Shown here in pieces: positions 22,964 to 59,664 of a stretch of 64,000 nucleotides of DNA. The notes under the pieces were generated by a model that saw nothing but the letters and a program-made list of their open reading frames with translations, had not been told where the DNA came from and made no database searches. The position numbers and the translations under genes were made by a program. The DNA is from Candidatus Hydrogenedentota bacterium (GTDB taxonomy: Bacteria > Hydrogenedentota > Hydrogenedentia > Hydrogenedentales > SLHB01): positions 59,435-123,434 of the forward strand of contig JARKSN010000288.1 in NCBI GenBank assembly GCA_029974275.1, given 5' to 3'. The number at the start of each line of letters is the position of its first letter. The first letter of the stretch is position 1.

Positions 22964-23896
22964 ATGAACGACGCCTCCTTACAACGCCTGTGGGATCATC
23001 TCGAGACGGAGCGCGGCGTTTCCCCGCATACGCTTCGCGCGTACGCCGGCGATATTGCGCAATTTTGCGATTTCGTGATGAACGGCGCTGCGGCGTTTCG
23101 CCGGGAGCCGGAAGAGGAACGCCCCGCGCCCACAACCGAAGCCCTGCGCCGGGCGGACCGGCAAGCGCTTCGATCGTTTCTAGCCCACGTCCAGACGTCG
23201 GGAGCCGTCGCCCGAACCGCTGCACGCAAATTGGCCGCGTTGCGCACGGCATATGCCTTTTATGTTCGACTGGGGGAACTTTCCACGAATCCCGCCGCCG
23301 AAGTGAAGGCGCCGCGTTTGGGACGCGACCTGCCGCACGTTCTCAGCATTTCGGAAGTCACGGCCTTGGTCGAGGCTCCGGACGCATCCAATCCGGCGGG
23401 CGCGCGCGATCGAGCCCTTCTCGAGACGCTATACTCGAGCGGCATCCGCGCGGCGGAACTGGCCGGACTTTGTTTGCGCGACGTGGACTTAATCGGAGGA
23501 ACGATCCTGGTTCTGGGCAAGCGCAAAAAACAGCGCCTCGCGCACCTGGGATCGTATGCCGTGGACGCCATGCGGCGGTATTGGGCCGTGCGCGGACAAT
23601 TGGGCAATCCGGGCCATGAGCGCGTGTTCGTGAACCAACGCGGCGGCCCGCTCACCACGCGCAGCGTGCAGCGGATCGTCGAAAAATACGTGCGCGCGAC
23701 GTTGCCGGGCCGTGCGGAGGTCTCGCCACATACGTTGCGCCACACGTTCGCGACGCACATGCTCGACGCCGGCGCGGATTTGCGCGTGGTGCAGGAAATG
23801 CTAGGACATGAAAGCCTTTCCAGCACGCAACGGTACACGCACGTCAGCATCGAACGCCTGCGGGCGGCGTATCGCGCGCATCATCCCCACGCCTAG
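22964..23896 (+). CDS. xerC: Tyrosine recombinase XerC-like
   Basis: SPHTLRAY, LYSSGIR, GKRKKQR, HTLRHTFATH and LGHESLSSTQRY motifs. Confidence 0.85.
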   Translation: MNDASLQRLWDHLETERGVSPHTLRAYAGDIAQFCDFVMNGAAAFRREPEEERPAPTTEALRRADRQALRSFLAHVQTSGAVARTAARKLAALRTAYAFYVRLGELSTNPAAEVKAPRLGRDLPHVLSISEVTALVEAPDASNPAGARDRALLETLYSSGIRAAELAGLCLRDVDLIGGTILVLGKRKKQRLAHLGSYAVDAMRRYWAVRGQLGNPGHERVFVNQRGGPLTTRSVQRIVEKYVRATLPGRAEVSPHTLRHTFATHMLDAGADLRVVQEMLGHESLSSTQRYTHVSIERLRAAYRAHHPHA

Positions 23897-35145: not shown

Positions 35146-35988
35146 CTACATGAAATTCGAGACCAACACCTCGCTGACGGCTCCGCGCCGGTCGGCTTTG
35201 CTGTTGATGGCGCGCGTGGCGAAGACTTCCCGGAGGGTGAATGCGCGGTAGAGTTCTTCGATAAACGGCGTTTTCGAGTTCGAAAGCAACGCCTTGACGC
35301 CGCGCCGATCGAGCTCGGCGAAAACTTCGGCAAGACGTCGCTGTTGGTCCTCGCCAAAACCGCCCTTGTCGTAACTAGTGAAAGACGCGGTCTTCGACAC
35401 AGGATGATAGGGCGGATCAAAATAAACAAAATCGCCCTTCGCGGCGCGCTCGATCACGGTCTCGAACGGACGCTGCTCGATGCGAGCGTCTTTCAACGCC
35501 GCGGCCACCGCGCGCAGGTTTTCTTCGTCGCAAATCAGCGGGTTCTTATACCGGCCAAACGGCGTATTGAACAACCCCTTGCTGTTCTCGCGATAGAGTC
35601 CGTTGAAACACGTCTTGTTGAGGTAAATGACGCGCGCCGCACGCGCGATGGCATCGGACGGCACCTCCGCGCGCATCGCGTAAAAATACGCTTCGCAATG
35701 CTTCTCCTTGTGCCCATGCAACAACGCGATGATCGCCTCGGCATTTTCCTGGACGCCCTTGTAGGCCTCGATAAGCCCCGCGTTGTTGTCGGAAAGACAA
35801 GCCTTGCGCCCCCTCATCCGCCCCAGCCGCGACAACTCGAAAAAAAGCGCGCCGCCCCCTACAAACGGCTCATGATACTTCCCGAACGCCCCAGCCGCCT
35901 CGACCGCCTTCAGCAGGTCCGGCAACAATTGCCCCTTCCCGCCAACCCATTTGAGAAAGGGCCGCGGCGTAACGGTCGGACGCCCCAT
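35146..35988 (-). CDS. DNA adenine methyltransferase (Dam/D12 class)
   Basis: FLKWVGGK, EPFVGGGAL, FNGLYREN, YFDPPY and LSNS motifs. Confidence 0.94.
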   Translation of the reverse strand: MGRPTVTPRPFLKWVGGKGQLLPDLLKAVEAAGAFGKYHEPFVGGGALFFELSRLGRMRGRKACLSDNNAGLIEAYKGVQENAEAIIALLHGHKEKHCEAYFYAMRAEVPSDAIARAARVIYLNKTCFNGLYRENSKGLFNTPFGRYKNPLICDEENLRAVAAALKDARIEQRPFETVIERAAKGDFVYFDPPYHPVSKTASFTSYDKGGFGEDQQRRLAEVFAELDRRGVKALLSNSKTPFIEELYRAFTLREVFATRAINSKADRRGAVSEVLVSNFM

Positions 35989-35993
35989 GCGTC

Positions 35994-36383
35994 TTACAGT
36001 CCGAAGTACAGTTCGAGCCATGCTTGCAAGTCGCCCAACTCGACGGCGGATCCCGTCGAGAGTAGATACGATTCCATGTTCTGCGAAAAACCCGCGCCGC
36101 TATACACCACGATGCCGCGAATCGGCCACGCCTTGATGTCCTCGATGGTCGCCGGTATCTTCTCCTCGGCGCTGCCCGAACCGCCTTGAAACTTGCACTC
36201 GATCCCGAGACTGACGCGCGTCACGGGGTGCTTCAACACGATATCGATAAAGCGTTTCGCGCCCCAAATGCGCCGCCCCACGCCAACCTGCCGGGTCACG
36301 TTCAACCCCAAGGCCTCGCCCAACGCCGCGACGCGCGCCTCGAGGTCTTTGCCGGAATCAACAGCGACGGCTTTGCCCGGCAT
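35994..36383 (-). CDS. Small PD-(D/E)XK nuclease (restriction-endonuclease-like)
   Basis: SGKDLE...FIDIV...IECKFQ...GSAEEK, 129 aa, immediately upstream of the methylase. Confidence 0.75.
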   Translation of the reverse strand: MPGKAVAVDSGKDLEARVAALGEALGLNVTRQVGVGRRIWGAKRFIDIVLKHPVTRVSLGIECKFQGGSGSAEEKIPATIEDIKAWPIRGIVVYSGAGFSQNMESYLLSTGSAVELGDLQAWLELYFGL

Positions 36384-37132
36384 CAGGGCTCCTCCCGATT
36401 CTTGGGCGCGCGCGGCAACGCGCCGGCCCACGACAACGCGCGGTAGCGCAGGATCATCCGAATCATCTGAAGCCCCAGAAAAAAGGCCTTCACCTTGCTG
36501 CCGGTCACGCTGGACTCCCCAACGCGCTTGCGATAGTTCACAGGCACTTCGATGAACGGGACGCCGTTGAGGATCGTCAACAGCATCAAATGCGGCCCAA
36601 ACGCCGAGCCGCCCTCGGCGAACTGCGGGCGAATCTTCTCATACGCGGCGCGATGAAACAAGCGCATCGAGCAACCGACGTCCGTGAGCAGCGTGGTGTT
36701 GAACAAAAACTCCATGAGTTTGCCAACCGCCCAGTTGCCCCACTTGAGAAAGAGGCCCATGTTGGCCCCTTCCCACACGAGCTCACGCTGGGTGCGGGTG
36801 CCGAACACCACCGGAACATCATCGCAATAGGCAAGAAGCTTGATGACGTCATGACCGGAGAACGTGCCATCGGGCTCTGCGATGATCAGGATGTCGCCAA
36901 CGGCCTCCCGCAAGCCGCGCCGGATCGCGTACCCATAACCTTGGCGCGTCTCATACACAAGGCGCGCCCGAGTGGGACGGACCTCGTCGTCCGTCCCGGG
37001 GGCGGCGTTATTGTTGACGACGACAATCTCGTCAACGTGACCAGAATCGAAAAAATCTTCGATCGCCGCCCGTATCGAATCCTTCTCGTTATACGTCGGA
37101 AAAACCACCGACACGGTTTTATCGCGCCACAC
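36383..37132 (-). CDS. Glycosyltransferase family 2 (polyprenol-phosphate glycosyltransferase-like)
   Basis: VSVVFPTYNE, GYGYAIRRG, EPDG and EVPVNYRKR motifs. Confidence 0.88.
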   Translation of the reverse strand: MWRDKTVSVVFPTYNEKDSIRAAIEDFFDSGHVDEIVVVNNNAAPGTDDEVRPTRARLVYETRQGYGYAIRRGLREAVGDILIIAEPDGTFSGHDVIKLLAYCDDVPVVFGTRTQRELVWEGANMGLFLKWGNWAVGKLMEFLFNTTLLTDVGCSMRLFHRAAYEKIRPQFAEGGSAFGPHLMLLTILNGVPFIEVPVNYRKRVGESSVTGSKVKAFFLGLQMIRMILRYRALSWAGALPRAPKNREEP

Positions 37133-44716: not shown

Positions 44717-45850
44717 ATGGATTTAACGGTGATCACGACGTACCGGTGCAATTCCCGGTGCTCGATGTGCCATATATGGAAATATCCGACCAAGCCCGCC
44801 GAAGAAGTGGACGCGGAAGTGTTGCGCGGGTTGCCGGGCGGTTTTGACAATCTGAATATCACCGGCGGCGAACCGACGTTGCGCACAGACTTGGCCGACC
44901 TGGTCGATGTATTGTATCCAAAATGCCGAATCCTCGAAATCAGTTCCAACGGCCTGCATCCGGAGCGTTTGGAGCCGATCATCCGGAAACGCCCGAACAT
45001 CAAGGTGCGCTTCAGCTTGGAGGGCTTCGACGATCGCAACAATCTCATCCGCGGCGAAACGGACGGCTTCCGGAAAAAGGTCGAAGGTTTGATGCGCCTC
45101 AAGGAAGCGGGCGGCACGGACCTTGGCTTCGGCTCCGTGATTCAGGACGACAACATCGACCAGATCGTCGATCTGTATCGATTTGCCCAGGAACGAGACG
45201 TGGAATACGCAACCTCGACCTTGCACAACGCCTTTCAGTTCCACAAAAACGACAACGTGATGTACGATCGCGTGCGCGTCGCCAAGGAAGTCGAGAAACT
45301 GATCGCCGAAATGCTGCGATCGAACAGCATCAAAAACTGGTTCCGCGCGTACCTGAACCTGGGGCTTATCGAAAACATCCTGGGGCATGATCGGCTGATT
45401 CCCTGCACGGCGGCGACCGACTTCGCCTTTATCGACCCGTGGTGCGACGTATACGCCTGCAATGTGCGGCCCGACTTGTGGATGGGCAATTTACGGAAAC
45501 AGTCCTGGGAAGAAATCATGGACAGCCCCAAAGCGGACGAGATCCGGGCCAAAGTGAGGACATGCACGCAAAATTGCTGGATGGTGACGACGGCGCGCAC
45601 GGCCATGCGCAACCCGCGGGCGCCGCAGTTGCCCAAGGCGCGCCCCTTCTGGTGGGTGGTCGCGAATAAGCTGCGCGTCAGCCTGGGAATGCCCATCCCC
45701 TTTGACAAATACATCGACTATGCGACGTTCGTGAAGGACGAGAGCGCAGTGAAACGGGAATTTCATCTGGACGACAAACCCGCCAAGCGCATCGTCCAGA
45801 ATGCGGACGACGAGCACTATACGTTTGTCGGGCCATACTTCAACCGGTAG
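44717..45850 (+). CDS. Radical SAM protein with SPASM/twitch domain
   Basis: CNSRCSMC and TGGEP motifs; C-terminal CTAA...IDPWCDVYAC...MGNL...CTQNCW. Confidence 0.88.
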   Translation: MDLTVITTYRCNSRCSMCHIWKYPTKPAEEVDAEVLRGLPGGFDNLNITGGEPTLRTDLADLVDVLYPKCRILEISSNGLHPERLEPIIRKRPNIKVRFSLEGFDDRNNLIRGETDGFRKKVEGLMRLKEAGGTDLGFGSVIQDDNIDQIVDLYRFAQERDVEYATSTLHNAFQFHKNDNVMYDRVRVAKEVEKLIAEMLRSNSIKNWFRAYLNLGLIENILGHDRLIPCTAATDFAFIDPWCDVYACNVRPDLWMGNLRKQSWEEIMDSPKADEIRAKVRTCTQNCWMVTTARTAMRNPRAPQLPKARPFWWVVANKLRVSLGMPIPFDKYIDYATFVKDESAVKREFHLDDKPAKRIVQNADDEHYTFVGPYFNR

Positions 45851-49793: not shown

Positions 49794-50453
49794 CTATAGG
49801 CCGGCGTAAAGAAAAGCGGGGCGCAACAAGTCTTTGGATTCGGGTTGCAACGCGCTTTCCTTGCGAAACGCGTCAAACAAGGCCTTCGCATGCGTCTTGG
49901 CCTTTTCCTTGGGAATATCCAGCGCTTGATATTGCCACGCCCGCGTCAACACGTAGACGCCGCCGCGATCCTGAAGCGACACCTCCACCGCATACAAACG
50001 CCCCCCGGCGAGAAAATAGACGTTTCCCGTCGCCGCACGGACAGGTTCGGCGGCGGTTTTCAAGCGGGCATACACCCCCCCGAACGCAACCGGCGCGGCG
50101 TCGCCAAGCGAAACGCCCGACCGGACAAGTTCCTCCCGGAAATCCGAAAGAGCCTGAAGCGGCGGATCGTCATGGGCTGCCGCCACCGCGTTGATTCGGT
50201 CATAGGATCCCGTGCGCAAACCTTCAACAATCCCGCGAGCCGTCTCGGCGACCGCTCCCGCGGGCCGAGACCACCCGAACCATGAATACGCCCCAATCGC
50301 CGCGCCGCCCGTCGCCAACAACACCACCACGATGCCCGCCAGGCGATGCGCCCTGACGCGCCATGCCGCGGCGCGAGTCGCATGCCACTCCAGCGGACGC
50401 ATGACTTCCGTCAACACTTCCTTGTCGAATTCCAATCGCCTGGCGGTTTGCAC
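49794..50453 (-). CDS. Hypothetical single-pass membrane protein
   Basis: One TM segment (LAGIVVVLLATGGAAIGAY); AAGGGA RBS. Confidence 0.65.
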   Translation of the reverse strand: MQTARRLEFDKEVLTEVMRPLEWHATRAAAWRVRAHRLAGIVVVLLATGGAAIGAYSWFGWSRPAGAVAETARGIVEGLRTGSYDRINAVAAAHDDPPLQALSDFREELVRSGVSLGDAAPVAFGGVYARLKTAAEPVRAATGNVYFLAGGRLYAVEVSLQDRGGVYVLTRAWQYQALDIPKEKAKTHAKALFDAFRKESALQPESKDLLRPAFLYAGL

Positions 50454-50562: not shown

Positions 50563-51891
50563 TCACGGCGATCCGCCATCGGCGGTTATACCATAAACCG
50601 TCGCCTGATTCATGCTGATTCGAAGACGGCAGCGAACGAGGGGCAGGTCCGAAAGCAAAAGGCCGTCCCAATCCAAACGGATCCGATCGCTGTCGACGGC
50701 ACGCGCCCGGCAAGGATTGACGCCGCCCAGGGGAAGGCCCGCTTCGTCCAGCGGCTCGACATCGATCCAGCCCTGCGAAGCGTCTGCGTCAAGATATACA
50801 GGCGAACCCGGAACAGAAAATGGCGGGGTGACGAAACGGCCCGATGCGTGCGAGACCACGCCCGTCAGCCGACGCGTGCGATAGGCCGCTTGTTCGAGGG
50901 AGCGGTTGCGCGCCACGAGGAACATCCGGCGGTTGCCGCTTGGATACGGCTCCGCAAACGACCATATTCCCAGATCCGCGTCGCGAAAGGGCCGTTCCCA
51001 TTGGCGCCCGTCGGAACTGACCATCAGTTCCGTGGCGAGTTTCCGGCTGAGTTGTCCGGGCCGGGCCGGATCGGCCCAGTATTTCAGCAACAACGCCAGG
51101 CAACGGCCTTCGTGAAAAAATGGGCGCATGGCGTAGAATTCCGTGTTGGGCGGATCGCGATCATCCGGCTGAAGCATTTGTTCCGGCAGGGTCCACTCGA
51201 GCAGATGAGCAGACGACCTTCGGGCAATCACGCGCCGCTGCCGGCCAACCAAGTCGGGATGCGGCTTGTCGGGCCATGGCACAAGAACCGTCTGGTATAC
51301 GTCATACCCTTCCTCGCGCGCCAGCAGCGAAAATATCCCCGAACCGCCCGAAAACACCGGATTTTCCGCCACGGGACTCCAATCCGTGCCTTTGTCCGAC
51401 ACCGCCGCATAGGCCCCTTCGCCGCCGGGAGAACGCCGATCCCAATACAGCGCCCACAATTTCCCCTCCTTAACAACCACCTGAAAAGCGCTGAGCGGCG
51501 CATTGCCGTCGCTGCGGGAAAAGGGCGCGGCAAGCATGGCGATGTTGTTGGGGCCTCCCCAGGGGACAGGTTCCTGCCGCAACGCAGGGACGGTCCACCG
51601 TCCTTCCCGGATGGTTCCCAGACACACGGCCCGCCTTTCTGGATCGCTGCGTAAATACCAAACCAGGACGCCCTGGGGCGACGCCAGCGCCGCGAATGGG
51701 AGATACGACGTCGCCGCATGAGCGGGATCCGCGGGAATCAATAAGGAGGCCGTCTCCGGGCGTTGCGCCTCGATCGTCACCCCTTCGGCGTCTTTCAGGT
51801 CCAGAGGAGAGAAAAACGAAAAAGGCAGCCCCACACTGAACGCCAATGCGACTGTCACATGGAGCCAACACGCTGTCATGCCGTGGTTCAT
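50563..51891 (-). CDS. Secreted protein, probable beta-propeller glycoside-hydrolase-like fold
   Basis: N-terminal hydrophobic signal; Asp-box-like SDKGTDW and SSDGRQW; EFYAM motif. Confidence 0.6.
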   Translation of the reverse strand: MNHGMTACWLHVTVALAFSVGLPFSFFSPLDLKDAEGVTIEAQRPETASLLIPADPAHAATSYLPFAALASPQGVLVWYLRSDPERRAVCLGTIREGRWTVPALRQEPVPWGGPNNIAMLAAPFSRSDGNAPLSAFQVVVKEGKLWALYWDRRSPGGEGAYAAVSDKGTDWSPVAENPVFSGGSGIFSLLAREEGYDVYQTVLVPWPDKPHPDLVGRQRRVIARRSSAHLLEWTLPEQMLQPDDRDPPNTEFYAMRPFFHEGRCLALLLKYWADPARPGQLSRKLATELMVSSDGRQWERPFRDADLGIWSFAEPYPSGNRRMFLVARNRSLEQAAYRTRRLTGVVSHASGRFVTPPFSVPGSPVYLDADASQGWIDVEPLDEAGLPLGGVNPCRARAVDSDRIRLDWDGLLLSDLPLVRCRLRISMNQATVYGITADGGSP

Positions 51892-51923
51892 TCCGCTGAC
51901 GCGTGCGCCGCGGTCCTCTTGCT

Positions 51924-51986
51924 AGAGCATTTTCGCCAATTATGCCTACGCCATGTACGCTCAAGAAACGTTGGCGAAAATGCTCT
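51924..51986. repeat. Perfect 16-bp inverted repeat
   Basis: AGAGCATTTTCGCCAA (51924-51939) and TTGGCGAAAATGCTCT (51971-51986), 31-nt spacer. Confidence 0.8.
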
Positions 51987-52055
51987 CACAAGACTGATCG
52001 TAGGCACAAAAAGTTAAACTGCTCAGCGCTTCGTCAGGCTGGGAGGCCTGACATG

Positions 52056-52087
52056 AAAAAAGCCGCAGAGCGAAATTCTCCACGGCT
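52056..52087 (-). terminator. Intrinsic terminator closing the small-peptide array
   Basis: AGCCGTGGAG-AATTTCG-CTCTGCGGCT-TTTTT on the minus strand, 25 nt after the peptide 3 stop; a second hairpin at 52033-52052. Confidence 0.75.
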
Positions 52088-52111
52088 GCACAGAATTCTT
52101 GTACGATTCGA

Positions 52112-52309
52112 TTACACGGTTTGGGTTTTGCCCAACACGGGGTACACGCGGTAGAGGCCCCACGCTACAAGGCTGCCCCAGTTCGTGAGGGGGCCAACGC
52201 CGTTCACGGTGATGCCGGGAACGCCGCCCGACTGCTTGCCCCAATCCCAACCAATCGTGCTGTCGGAAACGGCCGACGCCGGCTTCGAGACACGCGCAAT
52301 GTGTTTCAT
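52112..52309 (-). CDS. Small leader-bearing peptide 3 (65 aa) MKHIARVSKPASAVSDSTIGWDWGKQSGGVPGITVNGVGPLTNWGSLVAWGLYRVYPVLGKTQTV
   Basis: GAGGAGAAGGA RBS; shares the MKH..PAxA leader with two upstream ORFs; alternative ATG at 52318. Confidence 0.8.
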   Translation of the reverse strand: MKHIARVSKPASAVSDSTIGWDWGKQSGGVPGITVNGVGPLTNWGSLVAWGLYRVYPVLGKTQTV

Positions 52310-52390
52310 GTATGTCATCCTTCTCCTCGGAGCCCTACGTAGCGTTCGCACATGCGTGAACGTCGGCCCCGGTCGTGTGTTAGTCGTTAA

Positions 52391-52519
52391 CTAGACGGAC
52401 CAGTAATACTGTTGCTTCGGGCTCGGATTCCCGGTCTTGAAATAGCTCGGCCAGTTCCAGATCGGCCCAGACTCCGCCTTCGCCGGGGCGTCTTTCGTTA
52501 CAACCGTCAAGTGCTTCAT
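52391..52519 (-). CDS. Small leader-bearing peptide 2 (42 aa) MKHLTVVTKDAPAKAESGPIWNWPSYFKTGNPSPKQQYYWSV
   Basis: Translated by hand (below the track cutoff); GAGAGGG RBS, ATGATG start, shared leader. Confidence 0.8.
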   Translation of the reverse strand: MKHLTVVTKDAPAKAESGPIWNWPSYFKTGNPSPKQQYYWSV

Positions 52520-52698
52520 CATTCCAACCCTCTCGTGTATATGCCACCCGCCGCGCTCACGACTCGCAGGCCGCCGCCACGACTTTTGGCCGTTTGTGTT
52601 GCCCTTCCCGGCATCCGCTATGTGTCCGGGAAGTCGTCCGGGAAAGGCCTTCGTCTTTCCGAAGGCCCCCCGCCCGTCTCCCTACGGGAAAATGTTCC

Positions 52699-52851
52699 TT
52701 ACTTCGTCAGGAACTGGTTGACTTCACCCAACACCCAATTGGTCTGCTGAGTCGTCAACGGCGTCTTGCCAGTCAAGTTCCGCCATTCCACCAACGAGAA
52801 CCACGCGGCCCCAGCCGGCTTCTCCATCGAACGAACCTGGACATGCTTCAT
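52699..52851 (-). CDS. Small leader-bearing peptide 1 (50 aa) MKHVQVRSMEKPAGAAWFSLVEWRNLTGKTPLTTQQTNWVLGEVNQFLTK
   Basis: Translated by hand; full-consensus RBS AAAGGAGGTGA 7 nt before ATG; shared leader. Confidence 0.85.
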   Translation of the reverse strand: MKHVQVRSMEKPAGAAWFSLVEWRNLTGKTPLTTQQTNWVLGEVNQFLTK

Positions 52852-53018
52852 GTGGCTTTCACCTCCTTTCTCCTTCCGTCTTGGTCATACGCCATCTAGT
52901 CAACGCCACCTCGCGAGACCTGCGCCTCGCCAGGTTGTGGCCCTATTGTGGACTATCCCTCGGGGATTCGCAACTTTATTGTCCCCATCCGGAACAGTTC
53001 CCCTGCTTCCCAGACACA

Positions 53019-54587
53019 TCAAGGGCTCTCGAACAACCCCAAATCGCCTCCCTGCAAAATGGCCTGCGCGATAAGACCCAACACAGAATCGTCATTCGCG
53101 CCGAAAAACAACTTGTCCACCGCCGAAAGCAACTGGCCCAGTCCTTCCATTTCGCCGCACAACTGACGCGTCTGACGCGTCAACGCCTCCGTCTCCGAAG
53201 CGTCCAGCGGAAGCCCTGCAAGCCCTTCTATCGCCCACTGCTGCAATTCATACGCGGCCAATCGATCCTGACTATAGGTGGCGCCTTCGTTGAGCTGCTC
53301 ACCCAGCCGTTGTAGGGCCTCGAACACGTGCCGCGCCGCAACGGGGTTTTCTGCCGCTGCGTATTGGTGGCCATATTGTAACAAATCTTTTCCCAGATCG
53401 CAAAGAAAATTGCGCTCGTTCTGGCCAGCGTTCAGCGCGACCACCATCTGGGCCACCGGCAGCGACACGCCGGCGTCCAGCAGCGCCTTGAGGCGGGCGT
53501 CCGCAAAATCCTGGGTGTGTATGGATGCGCTTGTCAACGGTTTTGCGGCTTCGAGGGCCGTCAGGAGGTCATCCCATTTCCCCTGCTTGGCATATTCACG
53601 GGCTTCGAGATAAGACCAAATGGCGTTTTCCGGGTCCTGTTCCCGCAGCCGCCGATACAGCGCGATGGCCGTTTCGGCGGGAGCGCTGTCGTCGTTGCTG
53701 TAGCGCAGGGCAAGGGCGCGTTTGGCGGTCGCGTTGTCAGGATAACGCCCTACGGCCTGCACAAGCGCCTGTTCCGCTTCGGCATCGGATATCGACGCGC
53801 AGGCTCCCACGATGGCTTCGGCCGTGGAGTGTTCGTTGGCCACGATGTCTTTCGCCTGGCTTTCCATGACGCGCGCCCATTGCGCCAAACGCATGCGGGC
53901 GCCCTCGTCGGTCAAGGCAGCCCGGCGAGTTTCGATGATTTCCTGCAATGAGAGTTGGTTGAGGTTGACGGGATGCGTGGCCTCGAACGATTCACCGGCG
54001 GGAGGAAGAGGCGTCCGCGCATGGTGCGCAAGACCGTCCCGCAGGGCTTTCATCTCGGGAATATCGATGGAAGAAGCCGACGTGGCGTGCGGCGACGGGT
54101 CCGGCGAGGTCATTGCCGTTCGAATGTCGTTTTCAGACGCGTTCCGGAAGGCCTTGTGGTCGCGCCAGTCGGGAATACGCCCTAGCCAAACCGCCAGCGC
54201 GATCACTGCGGCAGCGGCGATGCCGCTCGCCCATTTTCCCCATGCCCGGGAAAAACTGCGGACGGCGCGGCGGCGCTCCGGGAAAGCGACAACGCGTTCC
54301 GGCGCGGCGTGCGGCGATTCGTTTTGATCCACGCCTGCAAGCACTGCGGCGACCAAATCCACGGCGGGGGCCTTGTGCGCCAATTCTTCGCCCATTGCCG
54401 CAAGATCGGCGTAGATCGCGCGCATGTGGTCGTATTCACGGCGATAGATGTCGCCGGCGGCGATGCGTTCACGGACGGACATCGCCGCCGCGCCTTCGAG
54501 TTCGCCCTCGAGCAACGCGATCACTTCGTCCAGCGCTATGGGGTCCGTTTCCTGTTTCACGCTACCGGCACTCTCTCGTTCCCGCAC
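53019..54587 (-). CDS. Putative anti-sigma factor with large extracytoplasmic TPR-like domain
   Basis: N-terminal anti-sigma-like helix (ALLEGEL...), one TM segment (GIAAAAVIALAVWL) and TPR-like repeats (DPENA); abuts the ECF sigma gene. Confidence 0.7.
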   Translation of the reverse strand: MRERESAGSVKQETDPIALDEVIALLEGELEGAAAMSVRERIAAGDIYRREYDHMRAIYADLAAMGEELAHKAPAVDLVAAVLAGVDQNESPHAAPERVVAFPERRRAVRSFSRAWGKWASGIAAAAVIALAVWLGRIPDWRDHKAFRNASENDIRTAMTSPDPSPHATSASSIDIPEMKALRDGLAHHARTPLPPAGESFEATHPVNLNQLSLQEIIETRRAALTDEGARMRLAQWARVMESQAKDIVANEHSTAEAIVGACASISDAEAEQALVQAVGRYPDNATAKRALALRYSNDDSAPAETAIALYRRLREQDPENAIWSYLEAREYAKQGKWDDLLTALEAAKPLTSASIHTQDFADARLKALLDAGVSLPVAQMVVALNAGQNERNFLCDLGKDLLQYGHQYAAAENPVAARHVFEALQRLGEQLNEGATYSQDRLAAYELQQWAIEGLAGLPLDASETEALTRQTRQLCGEMEGLGQLLSAVDKLFFGANDDSVLGLIAQAILQGGDLGLFESP

Positions 54588-55183
54588 TACAATGCATCAC
54601 GCACCGAACCATACCGTTCCCGCAACATGCGCAGAATCCGGTGGAGCCGCGTCCGGACGGCTCCTTCCGTGCTTCCGACAATGTCCGCGATGTCCCGAGC
54701 CTGCATATGCTCGAAAAATCGCAACATGACTATTTCCCGCGATTCGTCGTCTAACCCTTCGAGCGCCTGAGTCACGAAGGCGCGGCGATCAGCGGCTATC
54801 AACTGTTCCTCCGCTCCGTCCGCCGACGAGCGGAATAGTTCTCCCGAATCGGCGCGGGCCGAACTCGCGTAGGTTTCGATGGACTCCATCGGCACGGCGC
54901 GTTTGTGCTTGATGGCGTTCAAACACAAATTTCGCGCGATGCACAGCACCCACGGACGAAAGACCCGTTTCTCGTCAAAACGGTCTCGGGCTTTGTACAC
55001 CCGAATAAACGCTTCCTGGGCCATATCTTTCGCCTGCTCCACGTCCCGGAGGTAATGGAGGCAAAAGCGGAAAATATCCGCCTGGTATCGATGCACCAAC
55101 TCGGCCAAGGCTTGGCGTTGCCCCTGGTCGAGCAGGACCATCAATTCTTCATCTGTCTTTGCGTTCAGGTCCACGCAGCGCAT
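54587..55183 (-). CDS. ECF-type RNA polymerase sigma factor
   Basis: DEELM, AKDMAQEAF, FRPWVLCIARN and DIADIVGSTEGAVRTRLHR motifs. Confidence 0.92.
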   Translation of the reverse strand: MRCVDLNAKTDEELMVLLDQGQRQALAELVHRYQADIFRFCLHYLRDVEQAKDMAQEAFIRVYKARDRFDEKRVFRPWVLCIARNLCLNAIKHKRAVPMESIETYASSARADSGELFRSSADGAEEQLIAADRRAFVTQALEGLDDESREIVMLRFFEHMQARDIADIVGSTEGAVRTRLHRILRMLRERYGSVRDAL

Positions 55184-55487
55184 CCACGCTTCCCCTCGTC
55201 TCCCGTGCCGGTCCCGCCGCCGAGCGAAGGCCGTCGCGGAAACCGCGTGTTTCCTCCGGGCCTGTCTCGTGGTTCCGGCCTTCCAAGCGGGGAGGCGGGA
55301 ATGTTTCGCCTCCGCTGCGGCACGAGCGCGGTCCATGAGCGCGTCAATGTATACCACCGAAGCGGCGGAACATCACACATGCGGCGATTTTCGCATTTTG
55401 CCGCCGCCGCGCCCTTCCACTCGCGCGCCCGGAATCTGATAGAGTATGAGGGTGTTGCTTCCATTACAGAACGAAAGGAACCCAATC

Positions 55488-59195: not shown

Positions 59196-59664
59196 GTTGC
59201 GGGGCCTGATGGCTCAAATTCAGTTGAAAAAATGGGGGGTAGCCCGGGTTTTTCACAAGCGCGCGGCGCGGAGACGGAAGCTGCATTTCTGCGCGGGTTA
59301 CGCGCATGAAAGAATGCTCCATTCGAGCAGCGCGGTGGTGAAAAATCTTTCCGATGCAACGCGAACGGATGGAGCATGCGTTTTTCTCCATCCCGAGCGA
59401 ACGGCGTGAAAGAGGCGGGCGAGGCCCCCGTTTTTCGTTTTTTTACGTATCGCGGATTTCGCAGGAGAGGAAATACTTCCGTGGGCATGCGGAGCCTGCG
59501 GAAAGATGTGCGGCAAGGAGAATTGGGGACGCGGAGGATGGGGGTGACGCCTGACCTACAGCAGGACCGTTTCGGGGGATACGGGGCCGCTGCTGGACCC
59601 GCCTTGCTCTGTTCCCGCACGGCATCGGCGAAGCCAAACTGGAACGCCGGAAGGAGATCGGGCG

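Follow-up and report, generated by a model that had tools for sequence, protein, structure and literature searches.

Short peptides that carry an N-terminal leader are found in the double-glycine/C39 systems (class II bacteriocins, microcins, Nif11/NHLP and GG-type peptides) and in the SCIFF/ranthipeptide system (CteA/CteB, PDB 5WGG, TIGR03974), in which the N-terminal region of CteB binds the precursor. General background on SCIFF/ranthipeptides is given in PMC8172795. According to PMC4973701, MibX and MibW are an extracytoplasmic function (ECF) sigma/anti-sigma pair that controls production of the lantibiotic microbisporicin. Here, we describe an array of three small genes, P1, P2 and P3, in a 64,000-nucleotide stretch of DNA from a Candidatus Hydrogenedentota bacterium (the window; positions 59,435 to 123,434 of contig JARKSN010000288.1). 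The window is part of a 123-kb contig in an assembly of 4,376,879 bases (60.6% G+C, 342 contigs, 100% complete). On sequence grounds, P1-P3 are members of a family of precursor-like peptides, 31-94 amino acids long and specific to Hydrogenedentota, in which a common leader beginning Met-Lys-His (the MKH leader) is followed by unrelated cores. We lean, at little better than even confidence, towards the reading that they are trans-encoded substrates of a conserved processing and export gene set of the type present on contig C174 of the same genome.

P1, P2 and P3 are small-protein genes

The three open reading frames (ORFs) are genuine small-protein genes. In a tblastn-type search of 41 genomes, P1 was matched over its full length, with no stop in the frame, in relatives from the same family. 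A profile built from ten P1 orthologues matched 36 of the 135 phylum genomes at E<=0.01; by family, P1 was found in 33 of the 53 genomes of the window's family, with two weak matches in other families. When the P1 profile was run against 5.8 billion proteins, it recovered 53 clusters, all unnamed or 'hypothetical'. Few of the cluster source names included an organism, and most of these were Candidatus Hydrogenedentota/Hydrogenedentes, two being vaguer ('FCB group bacterium' and 'bacterium'). Nine of 11 loci were labelled Hydrogenedentota, one an uncultured Nitrospiraceae metagenome-assembled genome and one an uncultured bacterium. The sole match to P3 among the 5.8 billion proteins was a 68-amino-acid protein with 95% identity, and the ESM Atlas returned only unnamed clusters for P1.

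Pooled pairwise comparisons within genera gave ratios of nonsynonymous to synonymous change (pN/pS) of 0.12-0.31 for P1 (four genera), 0.17-0.28 for P2 where divergence was measurable, and 0.10-0.13 for P3, with the constraint acting on leader and core alike. Synonymous divergence was two- to four-fold lower in leader codons than in core codons in genera g6, g12, g4 and g9 (0.11 versus 0.45 in g6), which hints at nucleotide-level constraint at the 5' ends. RNA-library contigs from four metatranscriptome runs in three studies matched positions 52101-53024 with 0-1 mismatches and covered all three genes, a single contig spanning 52214-52793; such contigs report presence only, and expression level, strand and transcript ends are not readable from them. 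For the sigma and anti-sigma genes upstream, only four short contigs were found, and the contigs cannot rank expression. An earlier note, made from the DNA sequence alone, had proposed a selection test among orthologues and had taken missing homologues, missing frame conservation or missing transcription as signs against the array; purifying selection was seen in all three genes, the orthologous frames are open, and RNA-library contigs are present.

The array recurs in the same order in related loci, with one gene each of P1, P2 and P3 type. The P1 class is the most conserved and has the leader followed by a conserved pair of predicted helices. P2-class cores (L013, L018, L045, L052-L055 and others) contain W-W-F-G-W-F or I-W-x-W-P and often end in L-D-P-R/T-D-hydrophobic; the P2 of the window belongs with the I-W-x-W-P forms found at L013, L018 and L052-L055. 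P3-class cores carry an N-E-L/I-G-D or W-T-D-I-V-V motif and a hydrophobic stretch. The cores of the trio are thus three ortholog classes under purifying selection, and not the free-running divergent paralogues that the earlier note had seen in them. Its description of the three peptides was accurate as far as this array goes (three, three and four Trp residues in P1, P2 and P3, respectively, no Cys, and Trp at residue 23 in each), but neither the Trp count nor Trp23 is kept among orthologues, and Trp-richness is no family trait.

The local signals also agree with what had been described: three co-oriented ORFs, all on the minus strand, a full ribosome-binding box ahead of P1 and a terminator closing the array (Table 1). 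The Shine-Dalgarno box of P1 is near-invariant across 25 aligned loci. The position and hexamers of the candidate P1 promoter (TTGCnT, 17 nt, CACAAT) are kept across genera in the 25 aligned upstream regions; RNA-library contigs reach 20-85 nt upstream of this candidate, so that they do not fix the transcription start. P2 has an alternative ATG one codon upstream, which would give MMKH.

In related loci (L030, L033, L035, L038, L040, L042, L052, L054, L055 and others), the P1-P2 spacer contains a 55-65-nt hairpin. Its base is invariant (GCGGAAG...CUUCCGC), its inner stems vary by genus yet remain paired, and its 5' arm repeats GGAAGGAGA from the P1 ribosome-binding box. This hairpin could be an RNA processing or attenuation element. 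The structure was obtained from single-sequence folds, but RNAalifold on the spacer alignment gave none. The hairpin was not found in the window's own P1-P2 spacer (52520..52698), and an Rfam search of 51900-53200 returned nothing but a chance snoRNA match (E 0.38).

Table 1 Features of the array, its surroundings and the cassette. Positions are those of the window unless a contig is named.
Feature	Position	Strand	Remarks
P1	52699..52851	minus	50 amino acids; leader residues 1-15 (MKHVQVRSMEKPAGA)
P2	52391..52519	minus	42 amino acids; leader residues 1-15 (MKHLTVVTKDAPAKA)
P3	52112..52309	minus	65 amino acids; leader residues 1-13 (MKHIARVSKPASA)
Extended Shine-Dalgarno box ahead of P1	52859..52877	minus	GGAAGGAGAAAGGAGGTGA; unique in the genome
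Terminator-like hairpin and T-run	52061..52087	minus	just past the P3 stop; closes the array
Candidate P1 promoter, sigma-70-like	52945..52973	minus	TTGCGA, 17 nt, CACAAT; consensus match only
Anti-sigma factor	53019..54587	minus	522 amino acids; N-terminal anti-sigma domain; transmembrane helix at about 118-137; C-terminal TPR-like all-alpha region at about 210-520
ECF sigma factor	54587..55183	minus	Sigma70_r2/r4 and TIGR02937; start at Met59 inferred from orthologue N-termini; ORF open to 55357
Motif upstream of sigma gene	~55348-55375	minus	GTGATGTT(T), ~16 nt, GTAnnAT
442-amino-acid ORF	50563..51891	minus	no family match; separates trio from orf219, alone among the compared loci
orf219	49794..50453	minus	single-pass membrane protein; alpha+beta ectodomain
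Radical-SAM/SPASM gene	44717..45850	plus	rejected as partner of the trio
Seven-gene leader-peptide cassette	contig C174, locus L123, 2400-8912		leader ORFs, GNATs, CPBP, ABC-2, fusion

The MKH leader and a candidate processing cassette

The leader reads M-K-H-hydrophobic-x-x-hydrophobic-S/T-x1-4-P-A/V-x-A and is 13-16 residues long. A six-frame scan of the genome (pattern MKH[ILVMFATQ]x3-14 P[ASG]xA; ORFs of at most 120 amino acids; ATG starts only) returned three ORFs, exactly P1-P3, all inside 740 bases; since these are the only matches and lie clustered, their arrangement is not due to chance. Across the phylum, a degenerate DNA pattern of the leader gave 270 matches in 87 of 135 genomes, against three for a reversed-pattern control, with up to 14 per genome. 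By family, it was matched in 49 of 53 genomes of the window's family, 6/6 of f10, 14/23 of f11 and 0/10 of f13; the pattern is strict and undercounts, missing GTG starts and variant c-regions. The scan proposed in the earlier note thus isolates the trio among ATG-started ORFs of this genome and reaches most of the phylum at the DNA level, but it overlooked three variant-leader ORFs on contig C174.

Twenty leader loci away from the trio were taken from the DNA-pattern matches located on large contigs. The peptides that they encode are all 31-64 amino acids long and have very different cores, including hydrophobic helices, Lys/Pro-rich tails, Cys pairs and a D-H-P-G class. Cores of this last class (D/E-H-P-G/S...D-S...D-P-x-G...L-H) occur at L059 and L060 and also at L058, L063, L076 and L085; the gene just downstream at L059 and L060 presumably encodes a cation-diffusion-facilitator (CDF) transporter, a label given by eye to its N-terminus. 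When a profile of 46 mixed leader peptides was run against 1.84 billion representative proteins, 88 matches were obtained at E<=1e-3, all of 39-94 amino acids. His3 was invariant (88/88), and Ser/Thr at position 8 and Pro at -4 were each present in 87 of 88. Near the boundary, Ala occupied -1 in 85/87, Ala (72) or Val (11) occupied -3 in 83/87, and Gln stood at +1 in 38/87. A word-based search with the mixed leader alignment yielded only 109 candidates and 18 matches. All source names in the leader family that state a phylum point to Hydrogenedentota; two are less specific ('FCB group bacterium' and 'bacterium'). Because conservation ends at a boundary after A-x-A and the -3/-1 residues follow this pattern, the leader is probably cleaved there.

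No hydrophobic stretch was found in the leader: the best 8-residue Kyte-Doolittle window had a median of 0.29 over 117 leaders. Cys was present in 11 of the 117 family cores. Searches with Pfam (46 leader peptides, E<=1) and NCBIfam (25 leader peptides including P1-P3, E<=10) gave no match, and a PDB profile search with the leader alignment gave none. The architecture of a conserved leader and a diverse core, first noticed in the three genes, is therefore real and extends far beyond the locus. The leader likewise lacks the h-region of a Sec signal, as had been remarked, and it was rightly set apart from the double-Gly, Nif11/NHLP, lanthipeptide and lasso types, in that no model tried matched it.

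The 20 scattered loci have no universal neighbour. A porin gene (Porin_O_P or Porin_5) lies directly upstream on the same strand in four of them (L070, L073, L080 and L087), and at L073 a PhoU gene follows the porin and leader-peptide genes; type II secretion ATPase or platform genes are near three of the 20. At L077, L078 and L081, which belong to three families, the leader peptides stand beside an operon that encodes two GNATs, a CPBP/Rce1-like protease, and the ATPase and permease of an ABC transporter. The tabulation of neighbours that had been suggested thus brought out one recurrent operon, but no gene common to all loci.

A tblastn search with the L077 and L078 proteins located GNATa, GNATb, CPBP, ABC ATPase and permease in this order on contig C174 of the present genome, at 45-64% identity. 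Upstream of this operon lie three leader-type ORFs, which the first scan had missed because two have GTG starts and two lack the Pro. Downstream is a 642-amino-acid ORF encoding a CteB-like protein fused to a GNAT, the third GNAT of the cassette. The alignment of the fusion protein to CteB (PDB 5WGG) covers residues 6-196 and 343-432. Cys is absent from the position of the CteB C-x3-C-x2-C sequence, the radical S-adenosylmethionine (SAM) motif CxxxCxxC being lost, and the match to the SCIFF maturase model is confined to the SPASM part (56 bits versus a cutoff of 425). The PqqD model had no match in this genome; the CteB-like N-terminus is too divergent for it. The fusion protein was found in 123 of 135 genomes, including 53/53 of the window's family, and is single-copy in most. 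In three genomes (G015, G035 and G033), its gene lies next to that of the ABC-2 permease at leader loci. A C39 peptidase was rejected as the factor acting in trans: PF03412 has no match in this complete genome, occurs in 66 of the 135 phylum genomes and shows no relation to the leader.

ECF neighbourhood and the weighing of readings

Directly upstream of the trio, on the same strand, lie the genes of an ECF sigma factor and its anti-sigma factor. P1 follows the anti-sigma stop by about 170-340 nt in 27 of the 31 genomes with a strong P1 match; in one other, the P1 and anti-sigma genes are both at contig ends. The anti-sigma protein itself was found in 132 of the 135 phylum genomes, including families without P1, and in 20 of 20 other-family loci the sigma gene adjoins it, with no leader peptide downstream of the pair in any of the 20. 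This places the pair among the core genes of the phylum; the trio was added at the level of one family. No Pfam match was obtained for the 522-amino-acid anti-sigma protein, and a profile search of PDB sequences gave weak matches to tetratricopeptide repeat (TPR) proteins (E 4.5e-4) and RsiW (E 0.11). An AlphaFold2 model from 12 sequences (mean predicted local distance difference test, pLDDT, 71.7; predicted template modelling score, pTM, 0.60) showed a disordered linker followed by an all-helical C-terminal domain, with pLDDT >90 over most of 240-460. The best Foldseek matches were TPR solenoids (CTPR consensus, Pex5 and OGT; E 9e-4), with low template modelling scores and no specific relative. 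The motif upstream of the sigma gene (Table 1) is present in all seven other loci with a readable motif, L013 lacking it, and is a candidate promoter/operator of the core ECF operon. Genome-wide searches with this motif or the P1 promoter motif revealed no regulon.

On the other side of the array, orf219 directly follows the peptide genes in several relatives (tblastn: L009, L015, L016 and L018; alignment: L012 and L066) and was not found in the 20 other-family loci. Its AlphaFold2 model (pTM 0.70) gave only weak NTF2-like Foldseek matches, none significant (best E 0.1). Elsewhere in the window are a phage-type integrase gene (22964..23893) and a D12 N6-adenine methyltransferase gene beside a PD-(D/E)XK nuclease-fold gene (35149..36431), which are likely a restriction-modification pair.

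We infer the binding, cleavage site, acetylation, export and ECF link of the trio as follows. The CteB-like N-terminal region, as a RiPP (ribosomally synthesised and post-translationally modified peptide) recognition element (RRE), would bind the MKH leader, whether the peptide comes from the trio or from any other place in the genome, as the homologous region of CteB binds its precursor. The bound peptide may be acetylated by one or more of the GNATs. The CPBP protease or another enzyme would then remove the leader after A-x-A, and the ABC-2 pump would export the core. In one family the trio stands behind the phylum's core ECF sigma/anti-sigma pair, and its most likely site of action is the cell envelope, in a role tied to the ECF system. 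The idea that trans-encoded machinery serves the array has gained a candidate gene set for recognition, cleavage and export on C174; no active modifying enzyme is linked to the trio, and its status as a RiPP in the strict sense is unproven.

Several points weigh against this processing-and-export reading. Although a leader-pattern match was present in 86 of the 123 genomes with the fusion protein and in one of the 12 without it, these counts come from related genomes that are not independent, and they form a pattern and not a statistical test. The other 37 of the 123 have no leader-pattern match, and these include all 10 of f13. The trio and the cassette are on different contigs, and the absence of a universal neighbour at the 20 scattered loci fits action in trans without proving it. 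The cores of P1, P2 and P3 resemble conserved small proteins, and not bacteriocin-like cores. In genus g9 (three genomes), the P1-P2 pair lies away from the sigma/anti-sigma pair. The P1 promoter is sigma-70-like, unlike the sigma-gene motif, so that ECF control of the trio is not evident.

A serious though unlikely contender gives the trio a role as accessory components or ligands within the ECF system: exported P1, and perhaps the P2 C-terminus, would tune sigma release by binding the TPR-like anti-sigma ectodomain, either as an auto-inducing peptide loop or as a fixed subunit. This is compatible with maturation by the C174-type gene set and competes with it only over function. The proximity of P1 to the anti-sigma stop speaks for it, as do the confidently modelled TPR-like solenoid, which has peptide-binding TPRs such as Pex5 among its best fold matches, and the conserved acidic tail (L-D-P-R/T-D-hydrophobic) of many P2 orthologues. 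The nearest precedent is MibX/MibW, which PMC4973701 presents as a pair responding to its own peptide product. However, the pair is nearly phylum-wide and the P1 cassette is confined to 33 of 53 genomes of one family and two weak cases elsewhere; the other-family pairs are not followed by leader peptides, g9 keeps P1-P2 apart, the P2 of this genome lacks the acidic tail, and no ECF-type promoter was seen before P1. A bolder combination, which we hold to be improbable, would have a catalytically dead ranthipeptide-type maturase, retained solely to read the leader and fused to an acetyltransferase, feed dozens of scattered MKH-leader peptides to a CPBP/ABC-2 line specific to the phylum, with three of the exported peptides serving as extracellular ligands of the anti-sigma TPR ectodomain in one family. 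Such a combination would amount to an ECF-based peptide-sensing circuit for quorum or envelope state.

The involvement of the C174 cassette is denied altogether if the peptides are unmodified and class-II-bacteriocin-like or pheromone-like, their leader being cut by type I signal peptidase or another Ala-X-Ala protease. Signal peptidase I requires small residues at -3 and -1, and the leader, with Ala/Val at -3, Ala at -1 and Pro at -4, matches this specificity. The genome has at least four S26 signal-peptidase-I genes (contigs C170, C156 and C123), two of them adjacent ORFs of 510 and 422 amino acids with two S26 matches each, and many family cores are amphipathic or hydrophobic helices. This reading is nonetheless distinctly improbable, given that the leader lacks a hydrophobic h-region that could take the cleavage site through the membrane, that the genome has no C39 peptidase and that neither an exporter nor a peptidase was found in the 64-kb window. 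Alternatively, the N-terminal 15 residues might be a working part of the mature protein, such as a common docking epitope or a Met-Lys-His site for Cu(II)/Ni(II); a free X-X-His amino terminus is an amino-terminal Cu(II)/Ni(II)-binding (ATCUN-type) site. The invariant His3 would suit this, and some members lie beside the CDF transporter labelled by eye, a ZIP transporter or a ferritin-like gene. Yet X-X-His needs three residues, whereas 13-16 are conserved with a sharp boundary after A-x-A, and the neighbours are mostly unrelated to metals, which makes a non-removable N-terminus very unlikely. Hardly credible is the view that P1-P3 are classical radical-SAM RiPP precursors with Trp residues cross-linked by the radical-SAM/SPASM gene product. 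The cores are Trp-rich and this SPASM enzyme, encoded 6.3 kb away, has weak similarity to peptide maturases, but its gene is on the other strand with five unrelated genes between, never neighbours the trio in the 12 related loci compared, and scores far below every family cutoff, and the Trp positions are not conserved. The gene was rejected as a partner for lack of synteny and for its sub-threshold similarity.

If processing by the C174-type gene set is correct, the trio is one visible component of a hitherto undescribed system for peptide maturation and export across a whole uncultured phylum that is common in wastewater and digester communities. It would be unusual in having a new leader type, a leader reader derived from a radical-SAM enzyme without its chemistry, and precursor genes that lie scattered, next to porin and transporter genes and the gene of a core stress sigma factor. 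One cassette with many substrates would offer a handle on leader recognition that outlives catalysis, and on exported small peptides in a diderm candidate phylum. Full-text literature searches, whose coverage leaves out subscription journals, returned no relevant title or abstract on this system.

Comparison with known systems

The MKH leader resembles a Sec signal peptide in its positive N-terminus, its Pro/Ala-x-Ala c-region and its small -3/-1 residues, but it lacks the hydrophobic h-region of about 7-15 residues. As in double-glycine/C39 systems, one short leader precedes many unrelated cores, and the precursor genes may be distant from the exporter and present in several copies per genome. 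In contrast to those systems, the leader here ends in P-A/V-x-A and not in G-G/A, the genome lacks a C39 peptidase, and none of the NCBIfam models for such leaders was matched.

The locus is like that of MibX/MibW in that peptide-precursor genes are physically tied to an ECF sigma factor and a membrane anti-sigma factor. The pair described here is, however, a phylum-wide core pair and not pathway-specific; biosynthetic genes do not lie next to it, and an ECF-type promoter was not recognised ahead of the peptide genes.

With SCIFF/ranthipeptides, the family shares a small precursor with an N-terminal leader, and the 642-amino-acid protein aligns to the leader-binding N-terminus and SPASM domain of CteB. 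SCIFF precursors presumably begin like the MKH leader, a likeness for which model searches gave no match: the precursor models TIGR03973 and PF13165 were unmatched by the leader peptides. A SCIFF core has about six Cys residues, whereas the trio has none, and the CteB-like protein here is without the radical-SAM cysteines and is GNAT-fused. The present system also differs in having scattered precursors and in including further GNATs together with a CPBP protease and an ABC-2 exporter.

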